From an uncultured Opitutales bacterium (GTDB taxonomy: Bacteria > Verrucomicrobiota > Verrucomicrobiia > Opitutales > Intestinicryptomonadaceae): DNA of 32,000 nt. This document shows positions 4,005-26,373 of the stretch, piece after piece (within the stretch, counting starts at the first letter, position 1; every line of letters begins with the position of its first letter). The DNA is taken from positions 150,001 through 182,000 of the forward strand of contig CAKTSY010000003.1 of NCBI GenBank assembly GCA_934613415.1, in the 5' to 3' direction. The notes below the pieces were generated by a model. That model did no database searches, had not been told where the DNA came from, and was given only the letters and a program-made list of their open reading frames with translations. The translations under genes were made by a program, and so were the position numbers.

Positions 4005-4011
4005 TTTTTAA

Positions 4012-7326: not shown

Positions 7327-7330
7327 AATT

Positions 7331-8458: not shown

Positions 8459-9328
8459 TTACGCGTTTTCCAGCTTTTGGCAAAGCTCGTCTATAAGAAA
8501 GTCGGGCGTAGAAGCCCCCGCCGTTACCCCTATTACCGAGTATTTCTTTTTTAGGGCGTCTACGTCAAGCTCGGCAACAGTTTCTACATGGAAGCATTCC
8601 AGCCCCGTGCGCTTTGCCATAATTGCCAGCTTAACCGTGTTTGCCGAGTGCCTGCCGCCAATTACAATTATCGCCTGCGCGCCCTGCTGGGCAAGAATGT
8701 TAACGTCTTTTTGACGCTCTTTTGTTGCCCCGCAAATTGTGTCGATTACAACTGTTTTCGGGAAACGCTTTTTTATGTATTCGCAAATTTCGCGGTAGTC
8801 GTCGGTAAACATTGTAGACTGCGAAACAACGCAAATTTCGCCCTGTATGTCGGGCAAATTGTCCACATCGGCAAAAGACTTAACAACAAAGCCCTTGCCT
8901 TTTTTGGCATAGCCTAAAAGCCCCATAACTTCGGGGTGTTGGGGGTCGCCCACAATTAAAACCGTGAAATTTTTTGTTGCGTGAATTTTAATTTGCCCCG
9001 CAATTTTGCCAACGTCGGGGCAGGTTGCGTCCTTTAGGGGTACGCCCAAATCCTTAAGGTATTTTCTTCTTTCGGGCGAAACACCGTGCGCGCGAACAAC
9101 CAAAACGCAGTCGCCGCAGCTCGGGTTAATATTCAGGCTCGACTCGCTTTTATAGTCGCCTATTTCGTCTATGCCCTCGTCTTTAAGACGGCGCATCATC
9201 TGACTATTGTGAATAAGCGGGCCGTCGGTAAAAACTTTTTTGTTTTCGCCCGCCAAACTTCTTGCTATGCCTATGGCCCGTTCAACGCCAAAGCAAAAGC
9301 CCGCGCTTTTTGCCCTTATAACTTTCAT
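8459..9328 (-). CDS. ispH: 4-hydroxy-3-methylbut-2-enyl diphosphate reductase
   Basis: The three Fe-S cysteine contexts are present: SAGFCFGVERAI, DATCPDV and DTICGATKERQ. The true start is ATG 9328 (MKVIRAKSAGFCFGV), preceded by AGGGGGC. The 102 codons upstream in the 391-aa track ORF are Cys/Phe-rich junk spanning the intergenic region. Confidence 0.9.
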   Translation of the reverse strand: MKVIRAKSAGFCFGVERAIGIARSLAGENKKVFTDGPLIHNSQMMRRLKDEGIDEIGDYKSESSLNINPSCGDCVLVVRAHGVSPERRKYLKDLGVPLKDATCPDVGKIAGQIKIHATKNFTVLIVGDPQHPEVMGLLGYAKKGKGFVVKSFADVDNLPDIQGEICVVSQSTMFTDDYREICEYIKKRFPKTVVIDTICGATKERQKDVNILAQQGAQAIIVIGGRHSANTVKLAIMAKRTGLECFHVETVAELDVDALKKKYSVIGVTAGASTPDFLIDELCQKLENA

Positions 9329-9494
9329 ATTGCCCCCTACAAAATAGCATTTGCATAAATTTTGCAAAAACATTTTGTTAAAAGAAATCTTTTTTTGCGA
9401 AAACAAAAAATGCCATGCGGCAAAACGCATAAAAAATTCTAAGAACAAATTTAAAACGCAATTTATTGCGCAAATTGCGGCACAAAACTTGGGC

Positions 9495-9535
9495 ACAAAA
9501 AAACGGCTTTTGGAAAGCTCACAAAAGCCGTTTTG
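9495..9535 (-). terminator. Rho-independent terminator of the PEP-CTERM protein gene
   Basis: On the minus strand, AACGGCTTTTG ... CAAAAGCCGTT forms an 11-bp stem with a 9-nt loop, followed by a T-run (TTTTTGTG). It starts about 17 nt after the stop at 9552. Confidence 0.8.
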
Positions 9536-9551
9536 CAATTTTAAATTAACC

Positions 9552-12500
9552 TTACTTTCTGCGGCGGTATATCGCAAATGCCAAAGCCAATGCGCCGAAT
9601 ATTGCCGCCCATGTAGCCGGTTCTGGAACTTCAAATGTAACGTTAAAGTTCGAGCCGTCTATCGAGAATGTGCCGTTATATTTTGCAGCTGTTTTTGCGT
9701 CTACATATTCAAACGTTTTGCCGTTTAACGACTTTAACGATTCGTTTATGTTTGCTGCATCTGCAAACGAGATAAGGGTCATTTCAACATCAAGCTCTTG
9801 CATGTCGAAGCTCGAGAATAAGAAGTCCGAGCCCAAGACATTGCCGATTAGGTCGTTTTTGATATTGATTGTGTAGTCGGACTGCGAGAAGTCGAAGGCA
9901 AGGTATGCGCCGTCGGCTTTGGTCAACGAATTAACATTTAACGCGCCTGCGGCACCGAATGCCGCACCCGTAGCTATGGAAACATCGCCAACATTTGCGC
10001 TTGCAAGGAGCAATGCGCCGCCGTTAACCGCAACAGAGCCGCCGTTAAGGTTGTTGTTTGTGCCCGAAAGAACCTGTGCATTTGCGCCTGTTTTTACAAT
10101 GCTAATGGTGCTGTTTGCGTTGTTTGCGTAAATACTGCCTGCATATGCGCTTAACGAACCTACATTGTTGCCGAGCTGCAATGTGTAGTCTACATAACCG
10201 CCCATTTCGTTGCCGTATATGTTGCCTGTGCCGTTAAGAGTGCCAACAACTGCCTTGTAGGCTGCTCTTGCTTCGGCGGTTCCAGTATACGAATAGCCAA
10301 GCTTTAGACGGCCGTCGTTCATATTAAGCTCGCCAATATTTACGTTGTAGTCGGTCGACCTTGCAACGCCGCGCAACTGCAACACGCCGTTTGCGTTAAG
10401 GTTTGCCTTGCCAATCGAGATATAGTCGCGGTCGTCGCCGGTGTTCGTACCGTCTTTATTGGCAGTGTATGTAGAGCCGTTTACCGTTACCCATACCGAA
10501 TTTGCGGCGCTGTCGGCACCTATTGTCAATTCTTCGAATGTGGTTTTTTCGAAGCTGTTGAATGCTGTTTCGATAGAACCCGCCGTGCTTGTGATATTGG
10601 CAGTGCCAAAATCCAAATTCTTTGCCAAGAAGGAACCTCTTATATCGTTTTTATAGGCATAGTTTATGTCCAAATTGTCTACTCTATAGTCTGTGCCATA
10701 GTAGCCTGCAACAGTGAAGTTGTACTCGTGGTCGATACTAAATGCGGTTGTATCGATTACCATGTTTTTAACCAAAATGCTGTGGGTATAGTGCGTGCCG
10801 AAGAAAATTTTCTGGCCGGATTTAAACGCCCCCGTAAACTGCAAGTTGTCGATAGTTGCAACATTTGCGGTTGTTTTTGCGGTATTTACACGGGTTTGAA
10901 CACCGTAGGTTGCGGCGTCCGTCGTTTCGCCGCCCTTTAAGGCAAAGGTGCCAAAATGCGTTGTAGCGGTTGCCGCCGTAGAGGCGTTGCGGATATACAA
11001 ATATTGAGTGCCCAAAGCAGTATCGCCCGAAAGCGTAAGTTTGTTAATGTCTAGCTTATTGCCCGCTTTGATACGCGCATGCCCCCAGTCTAGGTTGGCT
11101 GTATACGAGCTGCCCGCTTCGCCCATGCCGCCGGCAATATTCAATTCGTTCACATAAACGTCTTTGCCGTTTAGTTGGAAGAAATAGTCGCCATATTTTG
11201 TGTCGGGTATGCCGCCCGAATATTTGCCGTTACCCTTAAAGTTTATAACGCCCGATATGTTAACGTCTGCCGAAGTACCGCCGTCTACCTTGCCTTTTGC
11301 GGGGTTTGTGTAGTTGATGTGGAACTTGTTTGTTTCGGCGTTGATAACGGCGTCGGCTGCCAATGTAAAGGCGGTGCTTTCGTTGCTTGTGGCAAACTGG
11401 CCGTCTTTAAATGTGGTTGTACCGCTTAAAGTACCGCCGTAGTATTTAAGCAATGCACCGTCGGTAAACGAGGCGTTTTCGGAAACTGCCGTACCGCTCA
11501 TGTTTATCAGGCCGCCCTTTTGGGTGGAATTTACAAACCTGCCGCCGCTAAAGTGCGTTGTGCCACCTACAATTGTAGTGTCGGTTACAACGGCGCTGTC
11601 GTTGATATTTGTAACGCCTTCAACAGTTTCCTCGCCGTCGGCAAATGTTTGCGTTATTGTTTTGCCGCTTACAGCAGAGGCACTGGTTGTGCCCTTAAAC
11701 GAAAGCGTACCGCGGTTGTTAATGTCGCCCATCAAAGAGGCGCTGGCGACATTGTTTATTATAAGGTTACCGCCCTTGGCAATGTCTATATTGCCGATAT
11801 AGGCGTTTTGAACTTCGCTGTCTATCTGCAAGGCGGAATTTGCCGCAACAGTTGAAGCCGCCAGAGAATTCAACGCATAGTCGCCGCTTTCGCTTTTGTC
11901 TACGCCAATTCTTAGTTCGCTTATTGTGCCCTGCCCGTTGCCGAATTTTAATGTCGACGAGCTGTCGAACGCAACATTAAGCCTGCCAAGATTGATGTAG
12001 TCGGCAACAAGCCCTTTGTCTGTATAGAATATAATATTCTTGCCGCCGCCGACAGTCATTGTGTCGGCAACATTCATTGTATTCTGAGACGAAGTCTTAT
12101 CTATAAAGTGGAATGTAAAAGTCTGGTTCGGGTTGGAGGAGTTGCCGAACAAAAATTCTTTTGCAAAATTTATGGTTAAATTATTTGCATAAACATTGGT
12201 GCCGCCGTTGTGAAGACTCGACAAAATTCTTTCCACATAGTTCGTCTTCGATACTACTGTTTTTTCGGCGTCTTTATAGCCCGTTGTCACCATATCGTCG
12301 GTTGTGCCCTTTATCCAGTACATCGGGTGCGAACCGTCGCCCGTCTGCCAAGACTTTTCTTCGTAGGCCTGTATCCATCCGGCGTTGCCGTTAACGTATT
12401 TGTCGCCTTCGGCATAGCCCGAAATTGTAACATTGTCTTCAATAGTGGGGCTTCTGTTTACAGGGCCTTGGTCTAGCACATAGTATTTTACCGTAATGCC

Positions 12501-12671
12501 GTCTTCCTCGTAAACGGGAACGTATTTAGCGTCGGCCGAATACCACATCCTGCCGTCTCTATTATAGGTTGTATTGCCGTCGGCAATCTGCCTATATACC
12601 AAATCGGCACCCAAAGACACCGATGCTGCGGCCGCAAACACCGCAAATATAGCCAATCTTATCGTTTTCAT
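9552..12671 (-). CDS. Secreted beta-helical surface protein with a PATR-type (autotransporter-associated beta-strand) repeat and a C-terminal PEP-CTERM sorting signal
   Basis: Signal peptide MKTIRLAIFAVFAAAASVSLGA. G/N/T/S-rich sequence typical of parallel beta-helices. PATR-like unit SIVKTGANAQVLSGTNNNLNGGSVAVNGGALLLAS. C-terminus VPEPATWAAIFGALALAFAIYRRRK. ATG confirmed at 12669-12671. Confidence 0.85.
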   Translation of the reverse strand: MKTIRLAIFAVFAAAASVSLGADLVYRQIADGNTTYNRDGRMWYSADAKYVPVYEEDGITVKYYVLDQGPVNRSPTIEDNVTISGYAEGDKYVNGNAGWIQAYEEKSWQTGDGSHPMYWIKGTTDDMVTTGYKDAEKTVVSKTNYVERILSSLHNGGTNVYANNLTINFAKEFLFGNSSNPNQTFTFHFIDKTSSQNTMNVADTMTVGGGKNIIFYTDKGLVADYINLGRLNVAFDSSSTLKFGNGQGTISELRIGVDKSESGDYALNSLAASTVAANSALQIDSEVQNAYIGNIDIAKGGNLIINNVASASLMGDINNRGTLSFKGTTSASAVSGKTITQTFADGEETVEGVTNINDSAVVTDTTIVGGTTHFSGGRFVNSTQKGGLINMSGTAVSENASFTDGALLKYYGGTLSGTTTFKDGQFATSNESTAFTLAADAVINAETNKFHINYTNPAKGKVDGGTSADVNISGVINFKGNGKYSGGIPDTKYGDYFFQLNGKDVYVNELNIAGGMGEAGSSYTANLDWGHARIKAGNKLDINKLTLSGDTALGTQYLYIRNASTAATATTHFGTFALKGGETTDAATYGVQTRVNTAKTTANVATIDNLQFTGAFKSGQKIFFGTHYTHSILVKNMVIDTTAFSIDHEYNFTVAGYYGTDYRVDNLDINYAYKNDIRGSFLAKNLDFGTANITSTAGSIETAFNSFEKTTFEELTIGADSAANSVWVTVNGSTYTANKDGTNTGDDRDYISIGKANLNANGVLQLRGVARSTDYNVNIGELNMNDGRLKLGYSYTGTAEARAAYKAVVGTLNGTGNIYGNEMGGYVDYTLQLGNNVGSLSAYAGSIYANNANSTISIVKTGANAQVLSGTNNNLNGGSVAVNGGALLLASANVGDVSIATGAAFGAAGALNVNSLTKADGAYLAFDFSQSDYTINIKNDLIGNVLGSDFLFSSFDMQELDVEMTLISFADAANINESLKSLNGKTFEYVDAKTAAKYNGTFSIDGSNFNVTFEVPEPATWAAIFGALALAFAIYRRRK
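9555..9629 (-). other. PEP-CTERM sorting domain (exosortase recognition signal)
   Basis: The last 25 codons give VPEP, then the hydrophobic helix ATWAAIFGALALAFAIY, then the basic tail RRRK. This is the canonical tripartite PEP-CTERM layout. Confidence 0.9.
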
Positions 12672-13066: not shown

Positions 13067-13155
13067 CCACAAAAAGTCCATCAAAAAAAGTAAAACTTTC
13101 CCTAAAAGTCGATGGACTTTTGTAGAAGTTTCCACAAAAGTTGATTGACTTTTGT
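13067..13155. promoter_or_regulatory. Cluster of related ACAAAAGT(C) palindromes upstream of the AAA+ ATPase gene (candidate operators)
   Basis: AAAAGTC-gatg-GACTTTT at 13104-13121 and ACAAAAGT-tgattg-ACTTTTGT at 13134-13155, with centres 32 bp apart. CCACAAAAAGTCCATC at 13067-13082 is the near reverse complement of GATGGACTTTTGTAG (13111-13125). The cluster ends 37 nt before ATG 13192. Confidence 0.45.
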
Positions 13156-13191
13156 ATAGAATTCTACAAAAACATACCCACTAAAGAAAAT

Positions 13192-14478
13192 ATGGAACGC
13201 TTTGCAATAAATAAACTTATAGACTGGAAAAAGTCTAAAAACAGAAAACCCCTAATAATAGAGGGTGCGCGCCAAGTGGGCAAAACCTACCTTATGCGCG
13301 AATTCGGCTCAAAGTTTTACAAAAACACGCTTTATGTAAACTTCGACCGCAACGAAAGAGCAAAAGACAGGTTTAAGGGCGACATAGACCCCGCAAGAAT
13401 ACTAAAAGAGCTTTCCGTTCAGTTCGAATGTGAAATAAACGAAAACACCCTTATTATTTTCGACGAAATTCAGGAATGCAAAAACGCCCTGCGCTCGTTA
13501 AAATATTTTTGCGAAGAAACCCCGCAATATAGCATAATGGCGGCGGGCAGTTTGCTTGGGGTTGCCCTGCACGAAAACGATTCGTTCCCAGTGGGCAAAA
13601 CCGACTTTTTGCAGATGTACCCGCTTTCTTTCTACGAATTTTTGTTGGCTACAGGCAAAAAAATGCTGGTAGACATTCTGCGCGAAAAAGATGTACAAAC
13701 AATAACGTCGTTTAAAGACACCCTTACCGAGCTTTTGCGCGTTTACTACATAACAGGGGGAATGCCCGCCGTTGTAAACAGCTATATTTTGGAACACGAC
13801 TTTGCCAAAGTAAGGGAAACTCAAAATGCTATATTGACAGCCTACCAGCTTGATTTTTCGAAACACATACCCTTGTCGGCATATCCAAAAGTAGGGCAAA
13901 TTTGGAATTCGTTGCCGCAACAACTTGCAAAGGAAAATAAAAAGTTTGCATATAATTTGGTGGCAAAAAACGCAAAGAGCAAGGAATATTCGGTTGCGTT
14001 AAACTGGCTTGTTAAAACGGGGCTTTCGTACGAAATAAACAAAGTTTCCAAGCCCGATTTGCCGCTAAGCGCATACGCCGAAAGCGGATTTTTTAAGCTG
14101 TATTCTTTAGATGTGGGGTTGCTTGGCGCGCTAAGCGGGCTAGACACTCAAACGGTTTTAAATTCGAATACGCTTTTTACCGAATTTAAGGGAGCGTTAA
14201 CCGAGCAGTTTGTTTTGCAACAATTAAAGGCATTGGGCATAAAGAATGTCTATTACTGGACAAGCAATGCAAACGCCGAAATAGACTTTTTGATACAACA
14301 CCAAAACGATGTAATTCCGGTAGAGGTGAAGGCGTCGATAAACAATCAGGCAAAGAGCCTGAAAGTTTATAGGCAAAAATATTCGCCGAGAAAATCATAC
14401 AGAATTTCGCTGAACGACTACAAGATAGACGGCGACATTGTAAACATTCCGTTATATGCGATGGAATCTTTCGTTTAA
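13192..14478 (+). CDS. AAA+ ATPase with a C-terminal PD-(D/E)xK nuclease-like domain (COG1373 / AAA_14 + DUF4143-type architecture)
   Basis: Walker A GARQVGKT (13264-13287), Walker B LIIFDEIQ, and a C-terminal EIDF...VIPVEVKAS (14278-14331) D...E-x-K signature. The track start 13141 is a TTG inside the palindrome cluster. ATG 13192 (MERFAINKLIDWKK) is preferred. Confidence 0.85.
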   Translation: MERFAINKLIDWKKSKNRKPLIIEGARQVGKTYLMREFGSKFYKNTLYVNFDRNERAKDRFKGDIDPARILKELSVQFECEINENTLIIFDEIQECKNALRSLKYFCEETPQYSIMAAGSLLGVALHENDSFPVGKTDFLQMYPLSFYEFLLATGKKMLVDILREKDVQTITSFKDTLTELLRVYYITGGMPAVVNSYILEHDFAKVRETQNAILTAYQLDFSKHIPLSAYPKVGQIWNSLPQQLAKENKKFAYNLVAKNAKSKEYSVALNWLVKTGLSYEINKVSKPDLPLSAYAESGFFKLYSLDVGLLGALSGLDTQTVLNSNTLFTEFKGALTEQFVLQQLKALGIKNVYYWTSNANAEIDFLIQHQNDVIPVEVKASINNQAKSLKVYRQKYSPRKSYRISLNDYKIDGDIVNIPLYAMESFV

Positions 14479-14543: not shown

Positions 14544-14580
14544 AAAATGCCGCAGTAGATTTCTGCGGCATTTTGTTTTT
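14544..14580. terminator. Bidirectional rho-independent terminator between the convergent AAA+ gene and the giant gene
   Basis: AAAATGCCGCAG (14544-14555) pairs with CTGCGGCATTTT (14563-14574), a 12-bp stem with a 7-nt loop. It is A-rich to the left and followed by TTTTGTTTTT to the right. Confidence 0.85.
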
Positions 14581-14597: not shown

Positions 14598-17500
14598 CTA
14601 GATTTCTCTTTCCGACAACCAGCGGAACGACACAACTTTAAAGCGTCTGCCCAAATATTTGTTAGACAAGTTGCCGTCGCTTAGTTCCGTATATATTGTG
14701 TCGTAGTCGGTCTTGTTCTGCGTGCCCAATTCCCTGTCGCGGTTTTCTATGTCGGTGGGTGCATTTGCAACCGAGTCTACATATTCAGGATAACGCTGAA
14801 CAACCATTTCACACCAAGCCTTGCTTTCTATTGCGCCTGTAATTGGGTTGCGGATTTCGCCGTAGGCTCTAATCTTAAAGGTGTCGCCCCTTACGGTTAT
14901 AAACGAGCCTATTTGCTGGAGAATGTCGGCCTGTGTTAGATATGCCGATGCCCCCGCCAATGTAGAACCTAAAACTGCGCGGTAGTTTTCCCACGATTCG
15001 CGCGGGTCGCCCATATAAGACCAAATTTGCCCCAACTGCGAAGCCGACGGGAACGAGCCGCAAACGGCAAGCGTCCAGTTGGCGGAGCGGTCGTCGTAGC
15101 TGGATATTTTTGCAAAGCGCGAATTTAGCGCGCTGTCGCCAAGCTCTATAAGGTATGCCGAATCGAAGAACGCTTCGTTTATTATCGTCATATCTATAGC
15201 CGACTGCATAACACCCTTTTGCATATGGTTTTGCATAACATAGAACGACTCTTTGTTTTCGTCTTTATTTACGTTAATCTTCGAGGCGTCCGACAGGGCA
15301 TCTCCTGCGTAAAAGTCGTCGCTTAGGTCGTAAACGCGCTGTTGGTGCATTCTTCTTACTTCGGCAGAACGCATTTCAACAGTGCGGTTTACAAAGTCTG
15401 CCAAAGAGTAGAATGGGCCGCGGTCTTTTACGTTTTCTACCATCGAAAGCGCAAGCTCTTCAAGCTCTTGGCTGTCGAGTGCCCTAAAGTTTGTCATGGC
15501 GTTCTTCGCGCTATTGTCTACGCTGTTGTCGGTAAATTCCTTATTTGTTGCGGGCAAACCGTTTCTTGGGAAGGGAGCCTTTTTGCCGACCCTTATGGGC
15601 GAAGTGCTGTCTACACTCATAACATCGGTGCCAAAGCTTGTTGCCAAAACCGCCTTCCATGCGTCGACATCTGTAGAATTTACGTTAAATGGCCCGTTAA
15701 TCCACAACCTTGCGGCGTTCGCCTCGAAGTCTAATTCCAAGTTGCGCGAATCGGAAATTGTGCTCTTTACATCACCCCTTAGGTGCGGAACCTGAATATC
15801 GGGGCCTAGGGTATCTACATACTTTATGCGCGGGTTGCGCGGGTTCCAATAAGTGCGGTCTAGCCTTGTGGAACGTTCGTCGGTTCTATAGGGTATGGTA
15901 GAGAAGAAGTATTCGTCCCACAAAACGTCGTTTAAGTGCCACGACAAGTCGTAGTTAATACCCCTATATTCCGATTCCATCTGGAAAGTGCCGTTTCTTG
16001 TTGCCGAAGCCGTTGTTGCCTTTTCGCCGTCGCACCACCAAAAGTCGTATGTTCTTTCGGGGGCAATGCGCATATTGGCAAACGAATTGCCTATTGAATA
16101 TGTCGGGTACAAAATGTCGCCGGTTGCAACACCCAAGCCCCAAGCCGAAAAGCCGCCGCGGCCAACTTCGGCACCGAACGACAAGTCTGCCGAAGACAAC
16201 TGCGCCATATTCGAAACAACTTCCTTTTCCCTTAAGAAGTGCCTCATGGGCAAGTCGTAGGTATTTGCAGAAGTCGGGTTCGGGCCAACCTGAGCCTTTT
16301 CGCCCATATTCCTTAATATGTTAATTGTCTTATATATGTAGCGACTGCCTGCATTGCGGCCATCGCCGCCAAATTCAACTGCGGCATATTGCATATTGTT
16401 TAACCTGCCGAAACGGCCGTGGCCTTCGCCCGTAAATATCTGCCCAGTACGCGGGCCGTAGCTGCTGTCGCGCAAAGAGCCGCCGCGGGCTGCAGTTGGG
16501 TCGCCGTAAAACTTGCCCGTTATGTTCGTGTTTGTTATATACGGGTATTTTAACGGATACTGCGTTTGCCAATCTACGGAACTGTCGAGATTTGTAGAGA
16601 TTGGCCTATATGCGCTTACGCCAACCGACATAACAATGCGGTCGCTATTTTGCCCCGTAAAGTTGGAGATGGGCAAAGCCGCCGTGCTTGTTGCAGCAAC
16701 CACAAAGGGGACAAAGTTTTGGGGCTGGCGGTCGTAGCAGCGCCCGCCGCTGTTGTTGTCTTTATCGGTAGTATACGCCGTGCTCCAAAACGAGGGGCTT
16801 ATGCGGCGCGGGTCTGTAAAGAGGAAATAAAAGTCTTCCCAAAACCAGTAGCCGTTTGTAGAAATGTTGCCCAAACCGGCTTGGCGTTTAAATTCCTTAT
16901 AGAATTCGTATTCGCTTGAAAACGCCTGCTGCCACTGGGGAACCGCCGCCTTTATCTTGTTCAACAAATATTTGTCGTAGGGCGACTTTGCATTGTTGCC
17001 AAGCCACTGCAAATAGGGCTGCGAGAAAAAGCCCTTTACATAGTTGCTTTCAAACCTAATTCCGTAGCCGTTGTTTAGGTAGTTGTAGCCCAAACCTGTA
17101 GAGCCTTCGCCGAACATGCAGTTTGCGCCGCTAAGCATATTTGCAGCCCCTATGGCACTGCCGCCCATGCCGCCGTATCTCCACAAGGGGTGCTCGCCCC
17201 ACGAAACGGTATCTTTTGCCCAGTTCATTCTGGGGAAGGGGAAAGACGTTATATTGTTACCGCCTGTAGAGTCCCAACAGTTTTGGTTAAGCAAATATCT
17301 TTTTAATGTTTGGAAGGTTGCCGCATTGCGCGGGGCGTTGTCGTTGCCGTCGTCGTCTCTATATAGATTTACCTTGTTGTTGTCGTCGGAATAGTCCCAC
17401 ATTAAAAGGGGAGTTCTTTCAATAGACCAGCTCAATACGCTGTTGAACGCGCCAAGCTTGCCCCTGTCGGGAATCTCCTTCATCGGGTTGTTGCTGCCCA

Positions 17501-20270
17501 ACCAATATTTGTCGTACCTATAATAGCCGTAGGGCGAAGAAAATGTATCTATTTGCTGCGAGCCCGCCTGCGGCACCATAGCTTCGGCGTCGTAGTCGAG
17601 CCTGATTTGAGCAAGCGAAACGGCTTCGGTTGCAAAACCGTCGTTGCCAGTGCCCAAAGCATCATTTATGTTAAACAATGCGCCAAGGGGCTTGTTGTCG
17701 GCGCCAACGTAGCCTTTGTCGTATTCCCATGGGTCGGTTCTAAAGGCTGGGCTTGTAGTTGTAGTTGCCGTGCCGCTACCCAAACCCGCAATATTTGCGT
17801 GAGCCTTTTCGGGGTGCAAAATGTCTATGAAGAAACCGCCCATTTTGTTGTTCGAAATGCCTTCGGTTAGGCACCATTCGGTTGGGTGCGACTTTTGCGC
17901 CCTGTAGAAATTGCCTGCATAGCCAAGCTTGCCGTTAAACTTAAGGTTGTAGGGCACAGACTCTTTAAGGGAGAATATCTTTGCCTGCCCGGGCTGCAAA
18001 CCGCTAGAATTTACCAAGAAGCGGAAGTTTACATCGTAGCCGTTGCCGTCTTTTACAACGCTTGCGTTTGTAGCCCTCGATTCCGTCATATAGCTCATGG
18101 AACCGCGGCTAGACAACGCCCTTTGCCCCACTCTGGCAATGGAGGTTTTTACGTCGTTTAAATAAAGTCTTCTAAAGTAGAACGAGTCTTTTGTTAAAAC
18201 TTTAAACGATACCGCAGCCGTTTTTTGAACGGGCGCGCCCGTAACCGAGTCGGCAACAGTGTAGGTAAAGTTTAATGTTTTGGGCTGATAGAAACGGATT
18301 AAGCCGCCAAACTTCGGGTCGTTTGGTATTTCGGAATCCTGCTTCATTGTATCTTCCCAAGTCCACGGGCCATAGCCGAAATAGGCTTTGTTTATGGCGC
18401 TGTCGTCGCTTGTGGCAATGCCGTTGGGCGAAGACTTAGGCATTACGCCGCTGCGATTTACATAGCGGTAGCGGTTTAGGTTTGCCGTATCGTAGCTAGG
18501 CAAAGACTTGCCGCCGCTGCTTGTTGCCCCGCTGGAATTTATAATCGGGCGGGTAATTCTTTCGGTTCTATAGTCGCGTATGCTTTGGAATACGTTGCCG
18601 CCCTTTAGGTAGCCAATTGCAACTCTGGAAGACGACAAAAAGCTTGAATCTGCAGCTCCTATTTGGAATGCATAAAAGTTTGCGTCTATCTTTGCGTCGT
18701 ACGGATTCCAAAGAACTACAACGGGAACATAGTATATTCTAACGCCGTAGTCGCCGCCGCCGTAGTCCGACAAAGCGGGAATAACCAAAAGCTGGAAGTG
18801 CTGAAGCACGGGGCTTAAGCCTGTTGTAGTGTCTGTCTTTACCTTAACTTTGTTGTCGTAAGAGGCGTTCGAGCCCGTACCATTTTGGTCTACGCGGGTA
18901 TTGTAGTAGCTGCGCAAAGAATCCCACAAAGGACCGCCTGGGTCTTTATGCTGGCGCACATAACCGTATGTTTGCGAATTGCCCTTGTTGTAGTTTAGGC
19001 CTTTATAGCTAAGGTTTATATCGTCTGCCGCCTGTGGGCCGAACATGTGGCCTGCGCCGTTTAGCTTGTTCTTTTTAAATTGGTTGTATTCGCCCGAGCG
19101 GTTGTGGAAATATGCGTCGTAGCCTTCAACACCGTAGGGACGTTCGAAATAGCTGGGGTTTAAGGGGTCGTTATTAAGGCGAAGCAGGCCAACGCTAAGG
19201 TCTTTTTTAAGGCCGCCCGCCCTTGTGTTTACCAAAAGCCCCTTTGTGCCAAAGGTAATACTGTTAAAGAAAATCTTGCCCAAGCCCAAGTTCGAAGACG
19301 AATCGCTTAGCAAATCCAACTGCGAAAGCTCGCTTACTTTTTTAAGCAAAATGCGATCGTCTCTATTTTCCATTCTAAAGTTGAAGGCTTCTACTCTGGA
19401 ATTTGGAATTGTTAAAGCCGCCAAGCCCGAATTGTAGGGCATTTGCTGAAGCCTTATAAGGTTTTGCCCCGTTCTTGCGTCGGAATATTCGTCGTAAGAG
19501 GCAATGGCGTCGGCGGCAGCCTTCTGCGATTCGTCGGAAACCCACCAGGCTATTCTCGTTTCGTAGGAAGACGCCGTTGTTCTTGCGGGGTTTTCGGGTA
19601 TGGTTACAACGGGAACTTTAACGCGCATGGTCTGCGTATCGTACGAACCGTTTTCGTCGGCATACGAATTTTTGCGAACCATATTTATGTAGTTGTCGGT
19701 AAGGTCGTCGGTTGGCCAGTGCTTTAAAGATTCAGACCTGTTGCGTATTATGTTGTTGCCCGAAACCAAGAAGGTTACAGCCCCTCTCATAACGTCGTCG
19801 GAATAGTCCATGCGGCTTTGGTCGGGGCCGCGCCACAACGGGTGCTTGCCAGGGGTGGAATTCCATACGCCAACCCAAAGCGGGTTTGCAATGCCGTCTA
19901 TACGCTTGGCGACTTGTCTGGAAAAGTTGGGGTTGCTGTTCCACCAGTCGTAGTTTTTGTTGCTTTCCAAGTCGTCAAAGACGGCGTCTAGACTTTGGTC
20001 TAAAATTGCGGCGTTGGCGGTTATTCTTTGGTCGGGGCCCAAAGTCTTTTGTATTTCGCCCAATGCCTGATATGCCGCAAAACGGGCGGCCTGCTTGGCG
20101 CGCTGGTCCAGCATGGCCTGCTTGTTTGCCTTAAGTTCTATCTGTACAATAGCCGAAAGCGTTACCACCAGTAAGACGAGAAACGCCATCAGCGCAAGCG
20201 CAATAATAAGCGCAAAACCCTTCCTGTTTTTAGGGGAGCGGTGTTTCAATAAAGTAAAGTGTTTTTTCAT
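14598..20270 (-). CDS. Giant (1890 aa) protein with a GspK/PilX-like minor-pseudopilin N-terminus; possibly related to Verru_Chthon cassette protein A
   Basis: Uninterrupted 5.67-kb ORF with ATG confirmed at 20268-20270. N-terminus MKKHFTLLKHRSPKNRKG-FALIIALALMAFLVLLVVTLSAIV has a basic leader, a Gly-Phe junction and a hydrophobic helix, with Ile rather than Glu at +5. RIAWWVSDESQKAA motif. C-terminal VRGDTFKIRAYGE...KAWCEMVVQRYPEYVD. The family assignment is from memory of these families, not from a search. Confidence 0.65.
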   Translation of the reverse strand: MKKHFTLLKHRSPKNRKGFALIIALALMAFLVLLVVTLSAIVQIELKANKQAMLDQRAKQAARFAAYQALGEIQKTLGPDQRITANAAILDQSLDAVFDDLESNKNYDWWNSNPNFSRQVAKRIDGIANPLWVGVWNSTPGKHPLWRGPDQSRMDYSDDVMRGAVTFLVSGNNIIRNRSESLKHWPTDDLTDNYINMVRKNSYADENGSYDTQTMRVKVPVVTIPENPARTTASSYETRIAWWVSDESQKAAADAIASYDEYSDARTGQNLIRLQQMPYNSGLAALTIPNSRVEAFNFRMENRDDRILLKKVSELSQLDLLSDSSSNLGLGKIFFNSITFGTKGLLVNTRAGGLKKDLSVGLLRLNNDPLNPSYFERPYGVEGYDAYFHNRSGEYNQFKKNKLNGAGHMFGPQAADDINLSYKGLNYNKGNSQTYGYVRQHKDPGGPLWDSLRSYYNTRVDQNGTGSNASYDNKVKVKTDTTTGLSPVLQHFQLLVIPALSDYGGGDYGVRIYYVPVVVLWNPYDAKIDANFYAFQIGAADSSFLSSSRVAIGYLKGGNVFQSIRDYRTERITRPIINSSGATSSGGKSLPSYDTANLNRYRYVNRSGVMPKSSPNGIATSDDSAINKAYFGYGPWTWEDTMKQDSEIPNDPKFGGLIRFYQPKTLNFTYTVADSVTGAPVQKTAAVSFKVLTKDSFYFRRLYLNDVKTSIARVGQRALSSRGSMSYMTESRATNASVVKDGNGYDVNFRFLVNSSGLQPGQAKIFSLKESVPYNLKFNGKLGYAGNFYRAQKSHPTEWCLTEGISNNKMGGFFIDILHPEKAHANIAGLGSGTATTTTSPAFRTDPWEYDKGYVGADNKPLGALFNINDALGTGNDGFATEAVSLAQIRLDYDAEAMVPQAGSQQIDTFSSPYGYYRYDKYWLGSNNPMKEIPDRGKLGAFNSVLSWSIERTPLLMWDYSDDNNKVNLYRDDDGNDNAPRNAATFQTLKRYLLNQNCWDSTGGNNITSFPFPRMNWAKDTVSWGEHPLWRYGGMGGSAIGAANMLSGANCMFGEGSTGLGYNYLNNGYGIRFESNYVKGFFSQPYLQWLGNNAKSPYDKYLLNKIKAAVPQWQQAFSSEYEFYKEFKRQAGLGNISTNGYWFWEDFYFLFTDPRRISPSFWSTAYTTDKDNNSGGRCYDRQPQNFVPFVVAATSTAALPISNFTGQNSDRIVMSVGVSAYRPISTNLDSSVDWQTQYPLKYPYITNTNITGKFYGDPTAARGGSLRDSSYGPRTGQIFTGEGHGRFGRLNNMQYAAVEFGGDGRNAGSRYIYKTINILRNMGEKAQVGPNPTSANTYDLPMRHFLREKEVVSNMAQLSSADLSFGAEVGRGGFSAWGLGVATGDILYPTYSIGNSFANMRIAPERTYDFWWCDGEKATTASATRNGTFQMESEYRGINYDLSWHLNDVLWDEYFFSTIPYRTDERSTRLDRTYWNPRNPRIKYVDTLGPDIQVPHLRGDVKSTISDSRNLELDFEANAARLWINGPFNVNSTDVDAWKAVLATSFGTDVMSVDSTSPIRVGKKAPFPRNGLPATNKEFTDNSVDNSAKNAMTNFRALDSQELEELALSMVENVKDRGPFYSLADFVNRTVEMRSAEVRRMHQQRVYDLSDDFYAGDALSDASKINVNKDENKESFYVMQNHMQKGVMQSAIDMTIINEAFFDSAYLIELGDSALNSRFAKISSYDDRSANWTLAVCGSFPSASQLGQIWSYMGDPRESWENYRAVLGSTLAGASAYLTQADILQQIGSFITVRGDTFKIRAYGEIRNPITGAIESKAWCEMVVQRYPEYVDSVANAPTDIENRDRELGTQNKTDYDTIYTELSDGNLSNKYLGRRFKVVSFRWLSEREI

Positions 20271-20461
20271 TTGCGTTTAGAATAGTGTAAATTGTTGCCA
20301 TTTGACAAGCAATTTTTTGCGCAGTTCTTCCGTTAAACGCTTAATATTTTTGCGGCCGTCTTTAACATGCGCCGACGCAAAAAGAAAGGGGCTTTTTTAA
20401 AGCAAAAACACAAAAAACTGTTTGCTAAGAGCGGCTTTTTGCGCCATAAAGCGGATTTAAT

Positions 20462-20935
20462 ATGAAATACAAAGCAATAGTGGCCGCCGACGAAAATATG
20501 CTTATAGGCAACGGGCTTGAAATTCCGTGGCATATAAGCGACGACTTTAAGCATTTTAAAAACACCACAATGGGTGGCGTAATTTTGTTCGGCAAAAATA
20601 CCTGGCTAAGCCTTGGCAAACGCCCGCTAAAAGGCAGGTTAAACGCCGTTTTAAGCCGTTCTTTAACCGAAACACCCCCCGAAAACGCAATGTATTTTAA
20701 AAGCAAGGCCGATTTCGACAAATATTTTGAAAACGACCCGCGCAATGTGTGGATTTGCGGCGGAGCGAATATTTACGAACAGTTTTTGCCCGACTGTTCC
20801 GAAATTATTTTAAGCAAAATTAAGGGGAAATTTAAAGGAGACACGTTTTTTCCCGATATATCGAAAAGCTTTAAACAAACCGAAATTTTGTTGGAACACC
20901 CGCAGTTTACGGTTGTAAAACTAACACGAATTTAA
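20462..20935 (+). CDS. folA: Dihydrofolate reductase
   Basis: 157 aa. IVAADENMLIGNGLEIPWHISDDFKHFKNTTMGGVILFGKNTWLSLGKRPLKGRLNAVLSR matches the DHFR N-terminal and NADPH-binding pattern. Confidence 0.9.
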   Translation: MKYKAIVAADENMLIGNGLEIPWHISDDFKHFKNTTMGGVILFGKNTWLSLGKRPLKGRLNAVLSRSLTETPPENAMYFKSKADFDKYFENDPRNVWICGGANIYEQFLPDCSEIILSKIKGKFKGDTFFPDISKSFKQTEILLEHPQFTVVKLTRI

Positions 20936-21688: not shown

Positions 21689-23041
21689 CTATTTTTTAAA
21701 TACGGCGTAGCCTGCGCCGTCGTTATGGGCAGCAGGCAAAACTATGCGGCTTTCAAGTAATTGGGCGCTTCGGGCAAATTCGGCAACGTTTTCGGTATTT
21801 TCGCACGCGTCTATCGAGCATGTAGAAAAAACAATAACCCCGCCCTTTTTCACAAAATTTAAAGCCTTAAAAAACATACGCCTTTGAATTTCGGCACAAT
21901 TATTTATGTCGCTTTCGGTTATGCGATATCTGGCATCGGCGCGGCGGCCCAGCACGCCCGTGTTCGAACAGGGAGCATCTAAAAACACAACGTCGTATTG
22001 CATGGGAACTCCCGCGCTTTCAAGCTTTTGGGCAACGTCGTCTTCCAACAAATCGAACGCAACTTGCTTTGTTTTTAAATTCGAAAATTTGCGAACTGCA
22101 AAATTAGCCTTAAGCGTTTCAAACCTTTTGTTGGGCAAGTCGCAACTGACCAAAAGCGAAGTCGTGTTTTTTTCGGAATTCTTTTTGTTTAAAATGTCGG
22201 CAATGTAGGCGCTTTTGCCGCCGGGGGCTGCGCACAAGTCTAACACATTTTGCCCCGCGCAAAAAGAAACCGCGTTTACGGCAAAACTTGTAGACGGGTC
22301 TTGCGCGTAGGCATAGCCATTTTTAAGCATAAACGAAACGTCGTTAAAACGCTGCGGCCTTACCGCGTAAAAATCGGCAAAAGGAGTCGGCAAAAAGGCG
22401 TCTTTTACCTGCAAAAAAGCGTCGCGCGCCTCGGGCGAATGCGCCACCCTAAAATATACCGATTTTTGCGAATGAAAATCTCTTAAAATTTCTAGCGCCT
22501 TTTCTTCGCCAAACTGCGCTTTAAAACGCTTTGCAAGCCATAGCGGCATTGAATATAGCAAGGCAAAATCTTCAAAGTTTTTTAAATTTTTTCTTAACGA
22601 ATCCAAATAGCCCAAAAATTTTCTTTGGGCTGCATTTACAAGTTTAGACTCGGGCACGCTAAAGAGCGCCTTCGCCGAATTTACGGAGCTGTCGGCGCGT
22701 TTGCAAGCCTTATCATATTCGCAATCAACCAGTTGCGAGCACGCCATACACAAATATGCATATAGTTTCGCCTTCGGCTTTTTATGCAAAAAACCGCTCA
22801 AAAAGTGTTCTACAAGCCCCTTGTTTCGCAGAAAATCCAAAAAGATACATTGACAAACCCGCCTTTCTTCTGTGTTGTAGTGTATAGAATTATAGTGAGT
22901 TGCTATAGCCGTATCGCTTTTGCCGCCGCGGTTAATGTAGCTCGTTATCAACTCCAACGCCGACAATGCGGCTTTTTCGGCGGCGCAGCTTGCACCGTTA
23001 TGAAAGGCTTTATTCATTTTCGGTTGAGGGAAAATGTACAA
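21689..23041 (-). CDS. rsmB: rRNA cytosine-C5 methyltransferase, RsmB/Sun (NOL1/NOP2) family
   Basis: SAM-binding DLCAAPGGKS, the two catalytic-Cys motifs FLDAPCSNTGVLGRR and VFSTCSI, and a NusB-like N-terminal region. An alternative start is ATG 23017 (MNKAFHNG). Confidence 0.85.
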   Translation of the reverse strand: MYIFPQPKMNKAFHNGASCAAEKAALSALELITSYINRGGKSDTAIATHYNSIHYNTEERRVCQCIFLDFLRNKGLVEHFLSGFLHKKPKAKLYAYLCMACSQLVDCEYDKACKRADSSVNSAKALFSVPESKLVNAAQRKFLGYLDSLRKNLKNFEDFALLYSMPLWLAKRFKAQFGEEKALEILRDFHSQKSVYFRVAHSPEARDAFLQVKDAFLPTPFADFYAVRPQRFNDVSFMLKNGYAYAQDPSTSFAVNAVSFCAGQNVLDLCAAPGGKSAYIADILNKKNSEKNTTSLLVSCDLPNKRFETLKANFAVRKFSNLKTKQVAFDLLEDDVAQKLESAGVPMQYDVVFLDAPCSNTGVLGRRADARYRITESDINNCAEIQRRMFFKALNFVKKGGVIVFSTCSIDACENTENVAEFARSAQLLESRIVLPAAHNDGAGYAVFKK

Positions 23042-23100
23042 AATTTTCCCGATTACAACAAAAAAATTTCAAAACAAACAAAAAATCGCAGGTAAAATAT

Positions 23101-25161
23101 ATGGAAGCATCGGCAGTAGCCACAATATTGGGAAAACACCCGAATCTCCAGTCGAAAAAGGAAAAGCTGGAAATTCTAAAGCAGGGAACTTTCTGCATAC
23201 ACAACGCCTGGGGCATTGGTATGGTAACGGCTCTAGACCCTGAAAGCAGCAGGGTTACAATAGACTTCGAAAACAAAAAAGGCCACTCTATGGACATTGC
23301 CTTTTGCGTGGAAAAGCTGCAAATTTTGGAGGACGACAATATTATTGTGCGCAACATAAAAGACAGGGCGGCCGTTGAAGGCGAAATGAAAAACCCCGCC
23401 GAATTTGTTAAGGCGATAATCTCGAAAAAACCCGACTTGTCGATTAGCTCTATAGAGCTTGAACAGATTTTAACCAGACTTTTTGCCGACGAAAAATCGT
23501 ATAAAAACTGGTGGAAAGTTGCCAAGAAAGACTTGGAAAGAGACCCTTCGGTAGGGTGTCCCAAAAAGAAGAACGACCCGTATTTCCTCCGCGCCGAGCT
23601 AAAGACCCCCGAAAGCGAAGCATTGGAAGAATATATGCTTTATAGGGATCCGAAAAAGAAAATAGAATTGGCAGAAAAGTTGCACGCCGTTGCCGAAAAT
23701 GTAGACGAAATTGCCGAAAAGCTCCCCTTAATTAGAGACGAGCTTACCGAGGCAATTAAAAAGGCAAAGGGTTTGACGCAAGCCGACAGGCTTAGAGGCA
23801 TTTGGGTAAGAAACGACTTTATCCGCGATATAGAGCGCAAAAAGTATGTGGAAAAACCCGAAGACAAGCTTAGCCCGGAACAGGCAAAAGAAATAGAAAA
23901 CGAGCTTGAAAAGGTAGAACCGCGTTCGAAGGACATTTTGGCCGAAACCCGCGAAAAGAACGAAAAAGACGGTCTTAACATTTTGGCTCGCAACCTTTGC
24001 CCCGCCTACTACGAAAGGTTTTTGGACCTTCTTACCAGAACCTACGATTCGGAATGGAAAGACATTATAATAGACCTTCTTAAAAATTCGGAGGGCAGGT
24101 TTACAAACGAATGCGTAAACTTCCTTATAGGCAAAGACAGGCAACAATCCAGCAAATTTACCGGCGAAAATATCAACCTAGAAGCAACCGCCAAGACAAA
24201 GAAAATTACCGACGAAAGCAGCTGCCAGCAGTTGGTAAAAGCGGCGTTCCAAAAATGGCTAGACGAGCAGACATTGCACGGCCCCGTAATTTTGTGGATT
24301 GCCAAGAACAGAAATTCCGACAAGCACAAGGCAATGCTTGCAAACCTTATAAACCACAAGCTGCTTAGCGCGCTTTTGTCCGCTATAGACGAAGAGGCTT
24401 TGCTTAGCGATTCGAACCGCAAAATAGCATTGGCCGAAGCCCTTAGCGAAGATAAATCTCTTGTTTTAGACCTTTTGGCAGGCCGCGTTTTAACCGCCGA
24501 CGAGCTTAAGAAAAAGAAGATTTCGCGCGACGAACGCTCGGCTTCCGACGAAACTGCAAGAGACTTGGCTCAAACTTTGTTGCTTAACCAAGGCTTTGAA
24601 GACCTCACCAAAAAATCTATTTTGGCAAGGTTTATAAGATACTCTAAAGAAGTGCAGTCGCTCATATCCAGCGGGGCAAAGCAGGTGGAACGCCTCTTTG
24701 TTTCGAAATGGAGCTTGCAGGCACGCATGGAAGAACTCGACGACATCATCAAAAACCAACAGCCCGCAAGCAAAAAGGCAATCGAAGCCGCACGCGAATT
24801 GGGCGACTTGCGCGAAAACTCCGAATACAAAATGGCGCGCGAACACGACGAAGTTCTTTCGGCTCGCAGAATGGAATTGGAAAGGGATATTTCCATGGCA
24901 GAACCTATCGACTTTTCGCAGGTTTCGACAGACCGCGTAAACATCGGCTCGGTTGTTACATTGCAAGACCCCGACGGCAAACAGCATGTATACACCATTT
25001 TGGGCGCGTGGGATTCGGATACCGACAAGAACATATTCTCGTACAAGACACCTATTGCGCAGGCTATGATGGAAAAGACCGTAGGCGACACATTCGAAAC
25101 AAACGTAGAAGGCCACAAGACTTCCTACAAGATTTTGAAGATAGACCGCTACGTTCCCTAG
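23101..25161 (+). CDS. greA: Long-form Gre-family transcript cleavage factor (686 aa: 533-aa N-terminal extension plus a canonical GreA module)
   Basis: The C-terminal 153 aa (24700-25158) align motif by motif with GreA: ARELGDLRENSEYKMAREH (acidic finger tip), VNIGSVVTLQD, YTILG, SYKTPIAQAMMEKTVGD. I place the start at ATG 23101 (MEASAVATILGK). The track start 22966 would overlap the divergent rsmB-like gene. Confidence 0.85.
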   Translation: MEASAVATILGKHPNLQSKKEKLEILKQGTFCIHNAWGIGMVTALDPESSRVTIDFENKKGHSMDIAFCVEKLQILEDDNIIVRNIKDRAAVEGEMKNPAEFVKAIISKKPDLSISSIELEQILTRLFADEKSYKNWWKVAKKDLERDPSVGCPKKKNDPYFLRAELKTPESEALEEYMLYRDPKKKIELAEKLHAVAENVDEIAEKLPLIRDELTEAIKKAKGLTQADRLRGIWVRNDFIRDIERKKYVEKPEDKLSPEQAKEIENELEKVEPRSKDILAETREKNEKDGLNILARNLCPAYYERFLDLLTRTYDSEWKDIIIDLLKNSEGRFTNECVNFLIGKDRQQSSKFTGENINLEATAKTKKITDESSCQQLVKAAFQKWLDEQTLHGPVILWIAKNRNSDKHKAMLANLINHKLLSALLSAIDEEALLSDSNRKIALAEALSEDKSLVLDLLAGRVLTADELKKKKISRDERSASDETARDLAQTLLLNQGFEDLTKKSILARFIRYSKEVQSLISSGAKQVERLFVSKWSLQARMEELDDIIKNQQPASKKAIEAARELGDLRENSEYKMAREHDEVLSARRMELERDISMAEPIDFSQVSTDRVNIGSVVTLQDPDGKQHVYTILGAWDSDTDKNIFSYKTPIAQAMMEKTVGDTFETNVEGHKTSYKILKIDRYVP

Positions 25162-25245: not shown

Positions 25246-26352
25246 CTACAAGCTTTCGGTTAAATCGAGCAGGTCTTTTAAAAAATATACTGTTTTTGCG
25301 CGCCCTGCCCCCTTTTCGTATACTGATATAATTTTCCTATCTATCAATTTTTGAAAAATGTTATACATTGTAGCTTTTGATGGATTGCTGGAAACTTTTA
25401 GCGACGATTGCGTAAACATAGGGCTTGCAACCATTGCGTCTAGCAACGGCACTGCGTGCTGCGACGAAGTTGCCTCTATTATCGAAATCTTGGTCTTTTC
25501 GTAATAGGCTATTATGTCTTTGGCAATTTTATAGTTTTTGTCGGCCTGCCATTTTATCGCACCCAAGAAAAACTCTATCCACTGTGTCCAGTTGCCGCAA
25601 TCGGTTATGTTGCGCAAAGAGTCTTTATATGCCATTTCGTTCTTATCCAAATACTGGCTTATGTATAGCGACGGCGTTGCAATAATATTTTTCTTATATA
25701 AAAACAGCGGAACAAGCATTCTGCCCAACCTGCCGTTTCCGTCGCAAAAGGGGTGTATTATCTCGAATTGCGCGTGCAAAACGGCGGTTTGTGCCAAAAC
25801 GTCTTTATCGTTTATGCTAAGGTAATCTATAAAATTATCCATATATTCGGGCACAATAAGAGTGTCGGGCGGAACATAGCGCGCGTTTTCTATACCGCCG
25901 CTTTTCGAGCCTATGTAGTTTTGAATTTCCCTTATTTGCCCCGGGTTTTTGGATTTGCCGCGAACGCCGTCTAGTAAAATCGTGTGCAACCCCTTTATTA
26001 ACGAAAGCGAAATCTCGCGGTTTTCCAGCGATTCGGCTCCAGATGTAAGAGCTTTTTTATAGTTCAAAACTTCGTTAATATCGTCTTTTTTTTCGTCCGA
26101 ATCTTCGCCAATGTTCGCCTGATATTTTAAAATGTCTATAGTGTCGGCTTGCGTTCCCTCTATTTTGCTAGACAACACAGCCTCGTTATCGACAAGCGGC
26201 GAAAGCAATAAGTTGGGGTTTGGCATTACGTTTAAAATGCCGTTAAAATTCGACACTGCCCTATTAGCCTCGCCCATTTTCGGCACAAGACTAGTCCAAT
26301 CTATACAGTTTAATGGAAGTTTTTGCGGAATATACGGTTTCATTGTGTCCAT
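25246..26352 (-). CDS. fic: Fic-family protein (AMPylase-type), class II with an intramolecular inhibitory motif
   Basis: Fic active-site motif HPFCDGNGRLGR (25720-25755) and an N-terminal inhibitory-helix motif S-S-K-I-E-G (26155-26172) fitting [ST]xxxE[GN]. About 368 aa. The track start 26406 is a GTG inside the repeat array. ATGs at 26352 (MDTMKPY) or 26343 (MKPY) are more plausible. Confidence 0.9.
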   Translation of the reverse strand: MDTMKPYIPQKLPLNCIDWTSLVPKMGEANRAVSNFNGILNVMPNPNLLLSPLVDNEAVLSSKIEGTQADTIDILKYQANIGEDSDEKKDDINEVLNYKKALTSGAESLENREISLSLIKGLHTILLDGVRGKSKNPGQIREIQNYIGSKSGGIENARYVPPDTLIVPEYMDNFIDYLSINDKDVLAQTAVLHAQFEIIHPFCDGNGRLGRMLVPLFLYKKNIIATPSLYISQYLDKNEMAYKDSLRNITDCGNWTQWIEFFLGAIKWQADKNYKIAKDIIAYYEKTKISIIEATSSQHAVPLLDAMVASPMFTQSSLKVSSNPSKATMYNIFQKLIDRKIISVYEKGAGRAKTVYFLKDLLDLTESL

Positions 26353-26373
26353 AATATACAACAATCGTAAGTT

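Follow-up and report, generated by a model that had tools for sequence, protein, structure and literature searches.

K-type minor pilins cap and prime the pseudopili of type II secretion systems as well as type IVa pili, and normally have about 300 residues. PilY1, a non-pilin, carries a Sec signal and a C-terminal beta-propeller. Prepilin peptidase cuts behind a Gly or Ala, and the subunit that caps a tip complex lacks Glu5; modular pilins bear grafted adhesive domains, and PilY1/PilC, proteins of more than 1000 amino acids (aa), are thought to sit at the very tip of type IVa pili, on the minor-pilin complex (PMC10191384). We analyzed a stretch of 32,000 nucleotides from a human-gut Opitutales bacterium (contig CAKTSY010000003.1, positions 150,001 to 182,000; hereafter the window), in which one open reading frame (ORF) encodes a protein of 1890 aa, hereafter named the giant protein. 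The family to which it belongs has the N-terminal start of GspK, which forms the tip of type II secretion pseudopili; therefore, the giant protein probably sits at a pilus tip and carries a large variable head. We consider it quite likely that it is a homologue of K-type minor pilins, and it probably descends from GspK/PilK. On balance, we also favor the fuller proposal of a minor pilin of the K type, like GspK and PilK/PilX, with a globular part enlarged about six-fold, which would cap the tip of a filament built by machinery acting in trans.

The giant protein resembles GspK/XcpX/PulK (NF037980; PF21687 plus PF03934; 3CI0 chain K, 5VTM chain X) by its basic leader, its G↓xAL layout (the arrow marks the predicted cleavage site), the absence of Glu5, a homologous first helix (alpha1) and, weakly, by the order of its motifs: a D-x-Q-K/N strand, two helix-hairpin-helix-like motifs and a terminal 'S/D-x-F-x-I/L' strand. 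GspK is also its top-ranked fold match in the PDB, with an insignificant E-value. However, GspK has about 330 aa, carries Val rather than Phe at +1, and lacks the ~1100-1250 residues that, in the giant protein, separate the N-terminal strands from the helix-hairpin-helix region. In addition, the giant protein fails every curated threshold, and its gene lies outside a gsp operon, with no H/I/J genes nearby. The likeness to modular type 4 pilins, such as Streptococcus sanguinis PilB and PilC, is conceptual, with a pilin module located in the tip complex and a bulky extra domain displayed on the filament. In those pilins, a recognizable adhesive domain (vWA, lectin), of a kind that also occurs outside pilus biology, is appended to a small pilin, whereas the extra residues of the giant protein would be inserted within the K-type fold, are several times more numerous, and gave no Pfam, NCBIfam or PDB sequence match. 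Unlike PilY1/PilC, the giant protein has a pilin-type N-terminus, and it has no PilC/PilY1 Pfam match.

The N-terminal signal and the first helix

The N-terminus reads MKKHFTLLKHRSPKNRKG↓FALIIALALMAFLVLLVVTLSAIV, exactly as quoted in an earlier sequence-only reading of the window, with KNRKG↓FALIIALALMAFLVLLVVTLSAIV at the junction and Ile23 at +5. Across 102 aligned family members, position −1 is Gly (87 members) or Ala (15 members) and nothing else, +1 is invariably Phe, +2 is Ala and +3 is Leu in all but two (100/102). Positions −2 and −3 are mainly K/R. At +5, the family has I/V/L/A/M/S, mainly Ile, Val or Leu, and never Glu. In alignment A1/A3, Ala replaces Gly at −1 in 20 of 59 members, mainly those of the long 1800-2000-aa type (KKAFAL...); the giant protein retains Gly18. 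The same G↓xAL layout, without Glu5, is seen in an alignment of E. coli K-12 GspK and its relatives (39 sequences), where it reads R-G↓x-A-L, with Val at +1 in GspK (R-G↓V-A-L).

Profile comparison bore out the proposal, already made in the sequence-only reading, of a GspK-kind prepilin signal with Ile in place of Glu. With hhalign, residues 13-77 were aligned to GspK residues 2-66 over 65 columns, at 94.6% probability (E 7e-8); starting from the full alignments, the match to the GspK profile was found at 91.9% (E 7e-7). As a control, a profile of the family N-module was run against individual Gsp proteins of E. coli. E-values were 1.8e-4 for GspK (64 columns), 4.8e-4 for GspI, 7.8e-4 for GspG and ~0.03 for GspH and GspJ, versus 0.2-0.7 for the non-pilin transmembrane proteins GspC/L/M/O. 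The signal of the N-module is thus pilin-specific and best for K, because GspK scores better than GspI and GspG, if modestly, and GspC/L/M/O score far worse. Moreover, AlphaFold2 (AF2) predicted one unbroken helix over residues 17-77 (61 residues), with a predicted local distance difference test (pLDDT) of ~90 and a hydrophobic run of 24 residues. The length of this helix points to a pilin alpha1, unlike a signal peptidase I signal. Judged from its sequence, the giant protein thus starts with a class III signal of pilin type that resembles GspK and is devoid of Glu5.

Among 18,950 NCBIfam models, only T2SS_GspK (E 0.04) and ComGE (E 0.65) matched the giant protein. The former match (NF037980) covers residues 17-69 only and reaches 13.4 bits against a cut-off of at least 130 bits; PF21687 and PF03934 gave no match at E≤1. 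Most of 15 relatives scanned in the same way match T2SS_GspK, TIGR02600 or both, within their first 60-90 residues only, and the best or second-best NCBIfam match of the giant protein and of most of these relatives is one of these two models.

These results bear on a different explanation, according to which the giant protein is a surface adhesin of the ordinary sort, exported by Sec or anchored by its signal, and its resemblance to GspK a by-product of a hydrophobic N-terminus. The curated models, none of which reached its threshold, and the structure searches presented below, none of which gave a significant match, would fit such a protein. On the other hand, the non-pilin transmembrane controls scored far worse than GspK, the match extends over 65 columns that include the amphipathic half of the helix, the hydrophobic run continues into a helix much longer than that of a signal peptidase I signal, and the G/A↓FAL motif is invariant. 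Overall, we find this explanation highly improbable.

Family, architecture and likeness to GspK beyond the first helix

The giant protein had been described as an orphan. By sequence comparison, it is instead an enlarged member of a large uncharacterized family of Verrucomicrobiota. A word-indexed search returned 67 relatives. An exhaustive search of 1.84 billion cluster representatives, with a profile built from 39 relatives, returned 6147 representatives at E≤1e-3, of which 3954 also passed E≤1e-30. In this search, the usual length is ~1200 aa (most 1150-1350 aa), and long versions like the giant protein (about 1750-2070 aa) are a minority. The closest relatives are P0001 (99% identity), the protein of locus L008 in the metagenome-assembled genome (MAG) Opitutales bacterium SUG3736 (contigs JAXFOH01; 98%), with which the window DNA is 93-95% identical, and P0002 (86%), encoded on a Hadza human-gut metagenome contig syntenic with the window. 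P0003-P0006 share ~42% identity with the giant protein across its full length, while ~25 more relatives of 1740-2070 aa and many of ~1200 aa align with it at the ends only. A scan of one genome per species revealed more than 590 family loci. The best 79 all belong to Verrucomicrobiota, namely Opitutales, Verrucomicrobiales including Akkermansiaceae, and Chthoniobacterales. Genomes often contain several loci; a Rariglobus MAG, for instance, has five. Neither Pfam nor NCBIfam has a model for the family, and the sole curated relative, TIGR02600, shares the first 60 residues only. Literature searches found no paper on this family or on the Verru_Chthon cassette. According to its annotation, one protein matching the C-module (P0377) derives from a Kiritimatiellia MAG; therefore, the family may reach beyond Verrucomicrobiota within the Planctomycetes-Verrucomicrobia-Chlamydiae (PVC) group.

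Residues 1-78 are 55-65% identical, and residues 1771-1890 71-72% identical, to those of the 42% relatives, as compared to 16-31% over residues 571-700 and 831-1320, with a patch of 41-46% at residues 701-830. Even versus the 86% relative, identity in the middle goes down to 63-76%. The ends are therefore conserved and the center is fast-evolving. Conserved ends flanking a variable middle are what would be expected of a buried base and an exposed head. Residues 571-1320 can be aligned by BLAST to P0001-P0006 only, apart from a patch at ~700-825, and no domain (Pfam) or repeat (self-BLAST) was found in them. The ~1,600 aa of unassignable sequence announced earlier is thus an overstatement, since residues 1-570 and 1320-1890 form modules kept across the family and only residues ~571-1320 are clade-specific. 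Similarly, the interior, described as W/Y/N/G-rich, is so only mildly (overall W 2.1, Y 5.4, N 7.5, G 8.0%). Other early observations were borne out. Self-BLAST detected no internal repeats in the giant protein, no PEP-CTERM signal is present in it, and Pfam gave no match at E≤1. In addition, PDB sequence searches with the giant protein and with a 59-sequence profile gave zero matches at E≤10.

In the N-terminal part of the conserved core, AF2 strands are located at residues 82-86, 133-137, 194-198, 217-220 and 237-246. The last overlaps RIAWWVSDESQKAA (residues 239-252), the motif noted earlier at about 230 aa. The region matching residues 263-570 is beta-rich in the AF2 model of a relative; these residues have no Pfam or PDB match. 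The C-module contains two helix-hairpin-helix-like motifs, GPFNVNSTDVDAWKAVL at residues 1526-1542 and LALSMVENVKDRGPFYSLADFVNR at residues ~1606-1629, and ends with three strands, DTFKIRAYGE, KAWCEMVVQRYPEY and GRRFKVVSFRWL (residues 1874-1885). The VRGDTFKIRAYGE motif, previously placed at the C-terminus, begins at residue 1793 and is followed by 58 further residues, including the conserved strand GRRFKVVSFRWL.

To model both ends, residues 1-262 were joined to residues 1385-1890, and the resulting construct of 768 residues was submitted to AF2 with 61 aligned sequences. The model (predicted template modeling score (pTM) 0.81, pLDDT 75) contains five strands in its N-terminal part, a helical region and, at the end, three long strands (pLDDT ~85-96). 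Because the pTM is high, the N- and C-modules would form one body, and the two conserved segments are predicted to co-fold around the poorly conserved middle of ~750 residues. For a whole relative of 1181 aa (P0035), AF2 gave a pLDDT of 66 and a pTM of 0.74.

Past alpha1, the likeness to GspK is suggestive and nothing in it is statistically significant. The ranks of GspK among fold matches, the collinear order of weak matches and the recurrence of HHH_6 and T2SSK, all given in this paragraph, speak for a K-type tip protein. The insignificant scores and the artificial construct weigh against it, like most gene neighborhoods and the size argument of the next section. The 768-residue construct is artificial. 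When it was searched with Foldseek against 350,542 PDB chains, GspK (3ci0_K) took the first rank, XcpX (5vtm_X) the fourth and the Xcp pseudopilus model the twelfth, all with insignificant scores (E 0.95-6, TM-score ~0.15); with P0035, GspK ranked second, again insignificantly (E 0.37, TM-score ~0.15). The four additional hhalign matches to GspK, which are collinear in both proteins (Table 1), are each insignificant (E 0.008-0.4, probability <8%). The C-module alone gave a best E of 0.024 versus GspK, at 2% probability. In a separate scan of 65 C-modules with 24,736 Pfam models, T2SSK matched only two (best E 0.031), tied as third most recurrent and below threshold. The most recurrent weak match was HHH_6 (9/65, best E 0.019), which is also sub-threshold. 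HHH_6 and T2SSK are the two features of the GspK alpha-domain, an insertion with helix-hairpin-helix motifs that accompanies the pilin sheet in the GspK fold. A word-indexed profile search with the C-module for a bridge to T2SSK-domain proteins returned same-family fragments only, none with a Pfam domain. The motifs that the sequence-only reading associated with GspK-like proteins do occupy collinear positions in the two proteins, but no single match is significant.

Neighboring genes and assembly

In the window, a motif scan, together with phmmer searches of the six-frame translation with the E. coli Gsp proteins, detected no pseudopilin other than the giant ORF and no secretin, ATPase or prepilin peptidase, as already noted for the adjacent genes. 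No platform gene and no homologue of E. coli GspC-O was detected either. Neighborhoods were then counted at the 64 relatives' loci with usable flanks. At 49 of them, a same-strand ORF starts within ~190 bp of the stop of the family gene and encodes ~230-290 aa, including an ordinary Sec signal, and 44 of these 49 downstream proteins form one BLAST cluster. The usual neighbor of the family is therefore a ~250-aa Sec-signal protein, foreign to any known pilus tip complex. This partner has no match in Pfam, NCBIfam or the PDB, and was not found in the window, in L001 or in L002, nor fused into the giant ORF. GspE/F genes lie within 10 kb at two of the ~64 loci, roughly the chance level. Only at L022, L030 and L032 is the family gene preceded by three prepilin-type genes. 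Their best matches, all sub-threshold, are GspH/cassette D, GspI/cassette B and GspJ/cassette C, which corresponds to a gspH-I-J-K order. At L022 and L030, an additional 884-aa Sec-signal protein is encoded between the prepilin-type genes and the big gene. The genomic context supports common descent with H-I-J-K sets; because of it, most members, including the giant protein, would need servicing in trans. Some relatives are found in neighborhoods rich in carbohydrate-active enzymes, which were left unused as evidence because no background rate was computed.

The three loci with prepilin-type genes recall the Verru_Chthon cassette, which comprises four genes, A and those of the prepilin-type proteins B, C and D. 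Its protein A (TIGR02600), from Verrucomicrobia, has ~1300 aa and an N-terminus like that of GspK, and the giant protein could be a diverged but true member of the protein A family. UniRef names two relatives so, in 11 of the 15 scanned relatives the model matches the first ~60 residues, and the family genes at L022, L030 and L032 follow D-, B- and C-like prepilin genes (TIGR02596/8/9) in D-B-C-A-like arrangements. However, the giant protein itself has no match at E≤1, the best relatives score 15-30 bits against a cut-off of 332.3 bits, and only model positions 1-61 of 1296 are matched. Furthermore, most family loci, including that of the giant gene, lack D, B and C genes, and usually have the Sec-signal partner. 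Membership was rejected on these scores and appears extremely improbable. The association with protein A made in the sequence-only reading is thus supported in part only, by the first ~60 residues of relatives.

The same neighborhoods would also suit a pilin descendant that does not assemble into a filament. In this case, alpha1 would be an inner-membrane anchor, cleaved or not, and the body would be periplasmic, mostly with the ~250-aa Sec-exported partner. This idea agrees with the 61 of 64 loci that have no pilin genes directly upstream, with GspE/F not being enriched nearby, with a conserved neighbor that is a Sec-signal protein and no pilin, and with a significant GspK likeness that is limited to alpha1. 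The size of the protein is a further point, since a folded head of ~200 kDa may exceed the secretin channel. Conversely, the strict G/A at −1 and the Phe at +1 in all 102 aligned members correspond to a prepilin peptidase need and are unnecessary for a plain anchor, H-I-J-like cassettes stand directly upstream in three relatives, and the collinear GspK-like motifs and top-ranked GspK fold matches reach past the anchor. Altogether, we consider a plain anchor unlikely, although it is the main rival of the tip-protein reading.

In the tip-protein reading that we favor, alpha1 would insert the giant protein into the cytoplasmic membrane, and a prepilin peptidase encoded elsewhere would cut after Gly18. 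The Glu5-less subunit would then cap the complex at the tip that primes a filament resembling those of type II secretion or type IV pili, with the filament-building machinery acting in trans. The variable head would be the most distal part of the filament and may bind a ligand for adhesion or substrate capture.

The locus and what the family may mean

The giant gene runs uninterrupted on the minus strand from an ATG at 20270 to a stop codon at 14598-14600, so that the single 1890-aa ORF reported earlier stands, as do its neighbors, a convergent AAA+ gene (AAA_14/DUF4143) and a divergent folA (DHFR). It is monocistronic, because a hairpin separates it from the convergent gene and the DHFR gene is divergent upstream (Table 1). 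The AAA_14/DUF4143 gene, located between the giant gene and the PEP-CTERM gene, is an indel: it is present in L008, on the SUG3736 contig, and absent from L001, an 85-95% identical Hadza contig, in which the giant gene is followed by the PEP-CTERM gene on the same strand.

Table 1 Features of the giant gene, its protein and their surroundings. Positions are window coordinates unless residues of the giant protein or a relative's locus are named.
Feature	Position	Strand	Remarks
Giant ORF	14598..20270	minus	1890 aa + stop codon; GspK/PilX-class (K-type) pilin-like protein
Basic leader, residues 1-18	20217..20270	minus	ends ...NRKG; predicted prepilin-peptidase site after Gly18 (putative cleavage)
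Pilin alpha1 helix, residues 19-77	20040..20216	minus	hydrophobic part FALIIALALMAFLVLLVVTLSAIV; amphipathic part ending ...ALGEIQKTL; Ile at +5 instead of Glu
Conserved-core N-terminal strands, residues 78-262	19485..20039	minus	GPDQRITANA, WVGVW, FLVSGN, RIAWWVSDESQKAA; kept in 59/59 aligned relatives
Family-conserved module, residues 263-570	18561..19484	minus	GGLKKDLS, GGPLWDSLRSYYN, VLWNPYD; no GspK counterpart; BLAST-alignable to nearly all relatives
Clade-specific variable 'head', residues 571-1320	16311..18560	minus	~400 aa longer than in typical 1200-aa relatives
Conserved C-module, residues 1321-1890	14601..16310	minus	kept in all relatives
Weak hhalign match to GspK 91-113	residues 238-260		E 0.4
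Weak hhalign match to GspK 217-233	residues 1526-1542		E within 0.008-0.08
Weak hhalign match to GspK 242-261	residues ~1607-1627		E within 0.008-0.08
Weak hhalign match to GspK 260-297	residues ~1777-1806		E within 0.008-0.08
Terminator-like hairpin, bidirectional	14544..14574		between giant gene and convergent AAA gene; 12-bp stem, T runs on both strands
AAA_14/DUF4143 gene	13141-14478	plus	convergent neighbor
DHFR gene	20462-20935	plus	divergent neighbor, upstream
Weak sigma-70-like promoter match	20279..20308	minus	TTGTCA-18-TATTCT, just upstream of the giant ATG; 1 site versus 0.7 expected in shuffles, hence no evidence alone
Sec-signal partner genes (examples)	L003 15737-16495; L004 13794-14552; L006 13641-14408; L007 13555-14361
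Upstream prepilin-type genes	L032 7879-9980; L022 5185-7264; L030 2515-4783
Arginine biosynthesis cluster	1780-8383	minus	argG, argF, argD, argB, argJ, argC; syntenic in L001
ispH/LytB ORF	8459-9634	minus	TTG start, 391 aa
PEP-CTERM protein gene	9552-12671	minus	1039 aa, secreted
GreA/GreB-domain protein gene	22966-25161	plus	731 aa
Fic-domain gene	25246-26406
Wzy_C/O-antigen-ligase-like gene	27748-29118

Other genes of the window deserve a brief description. The sole recognizable feature of the PEP-CTERM protein is its C-terminal sorting signal, VPEPATWAAIFGALALAFAIYRRRK (TIGR02595, 19.9 bits versus a cut-off of 16); its presence implies an exosortase system elsewhere in the genome. A link between this protein and the giant protein was dropped, as only the closest relatives (L001, L008) have the two genes side by side, unlike the 41% relative (L002/L009). 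In the ispH/LytB ORF, an N-terminal extension of ~100 residues runs over the end of the PEP-CTERM gene. The LYTB domain begins at residue 105, and the gene of a relative is annotated with 304 aa; translation probably starts further downstream than the TTG. In the 731-aa protein, the GreA/GreB N- and C-terminal domains occupy the last ~150 residues only, after an extension of ~580 residues in which the orthologue of a relative shows a Pfam HTH_GRAD match.

Thousands of K-type versions of 1200-2000 residues would push the idea of a 'modular pilin' to an extreme. The family would point to an unstudied mode of attachment or substrate capture in polysaccharide-degrading, gut-dwelling Verrucomicrobiota, and its conserved Sec-signal partner is likewise undescribed. 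The gene class was already recognizable from its N-terminus alone, and the function proposed here is wholly inferred, as is the link to a filament machine. The family is carried by cultured bacteria, including Cerasicoccus (C. arenae), Puniceicoccus, Luteolibacter, Haloferula (H. luteola), Roseibacillus, Rubritalea (R. tangerina) and Thalassobacterium. More speculatively, and with considerable doubt, its members could form a phylum-wide set of interchangeable giant tip modules, that is, K-type pilins whose own bodies would have grown into variable binding heads of 1000-2000 residues, mostly equipped with a dedicated Sec-exported ~250-aa partner instead of adjacent H/I/J-type minor pilin genes, and displayed by one shared type IV filament machine. 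If so, this shared machine could show many adhesive or substrate-capturing tips in Verrucomicrobiota, including human-gut Opitutales and Akkermansiaceae, and the tips may suit different polysaccharides or host surfaces.

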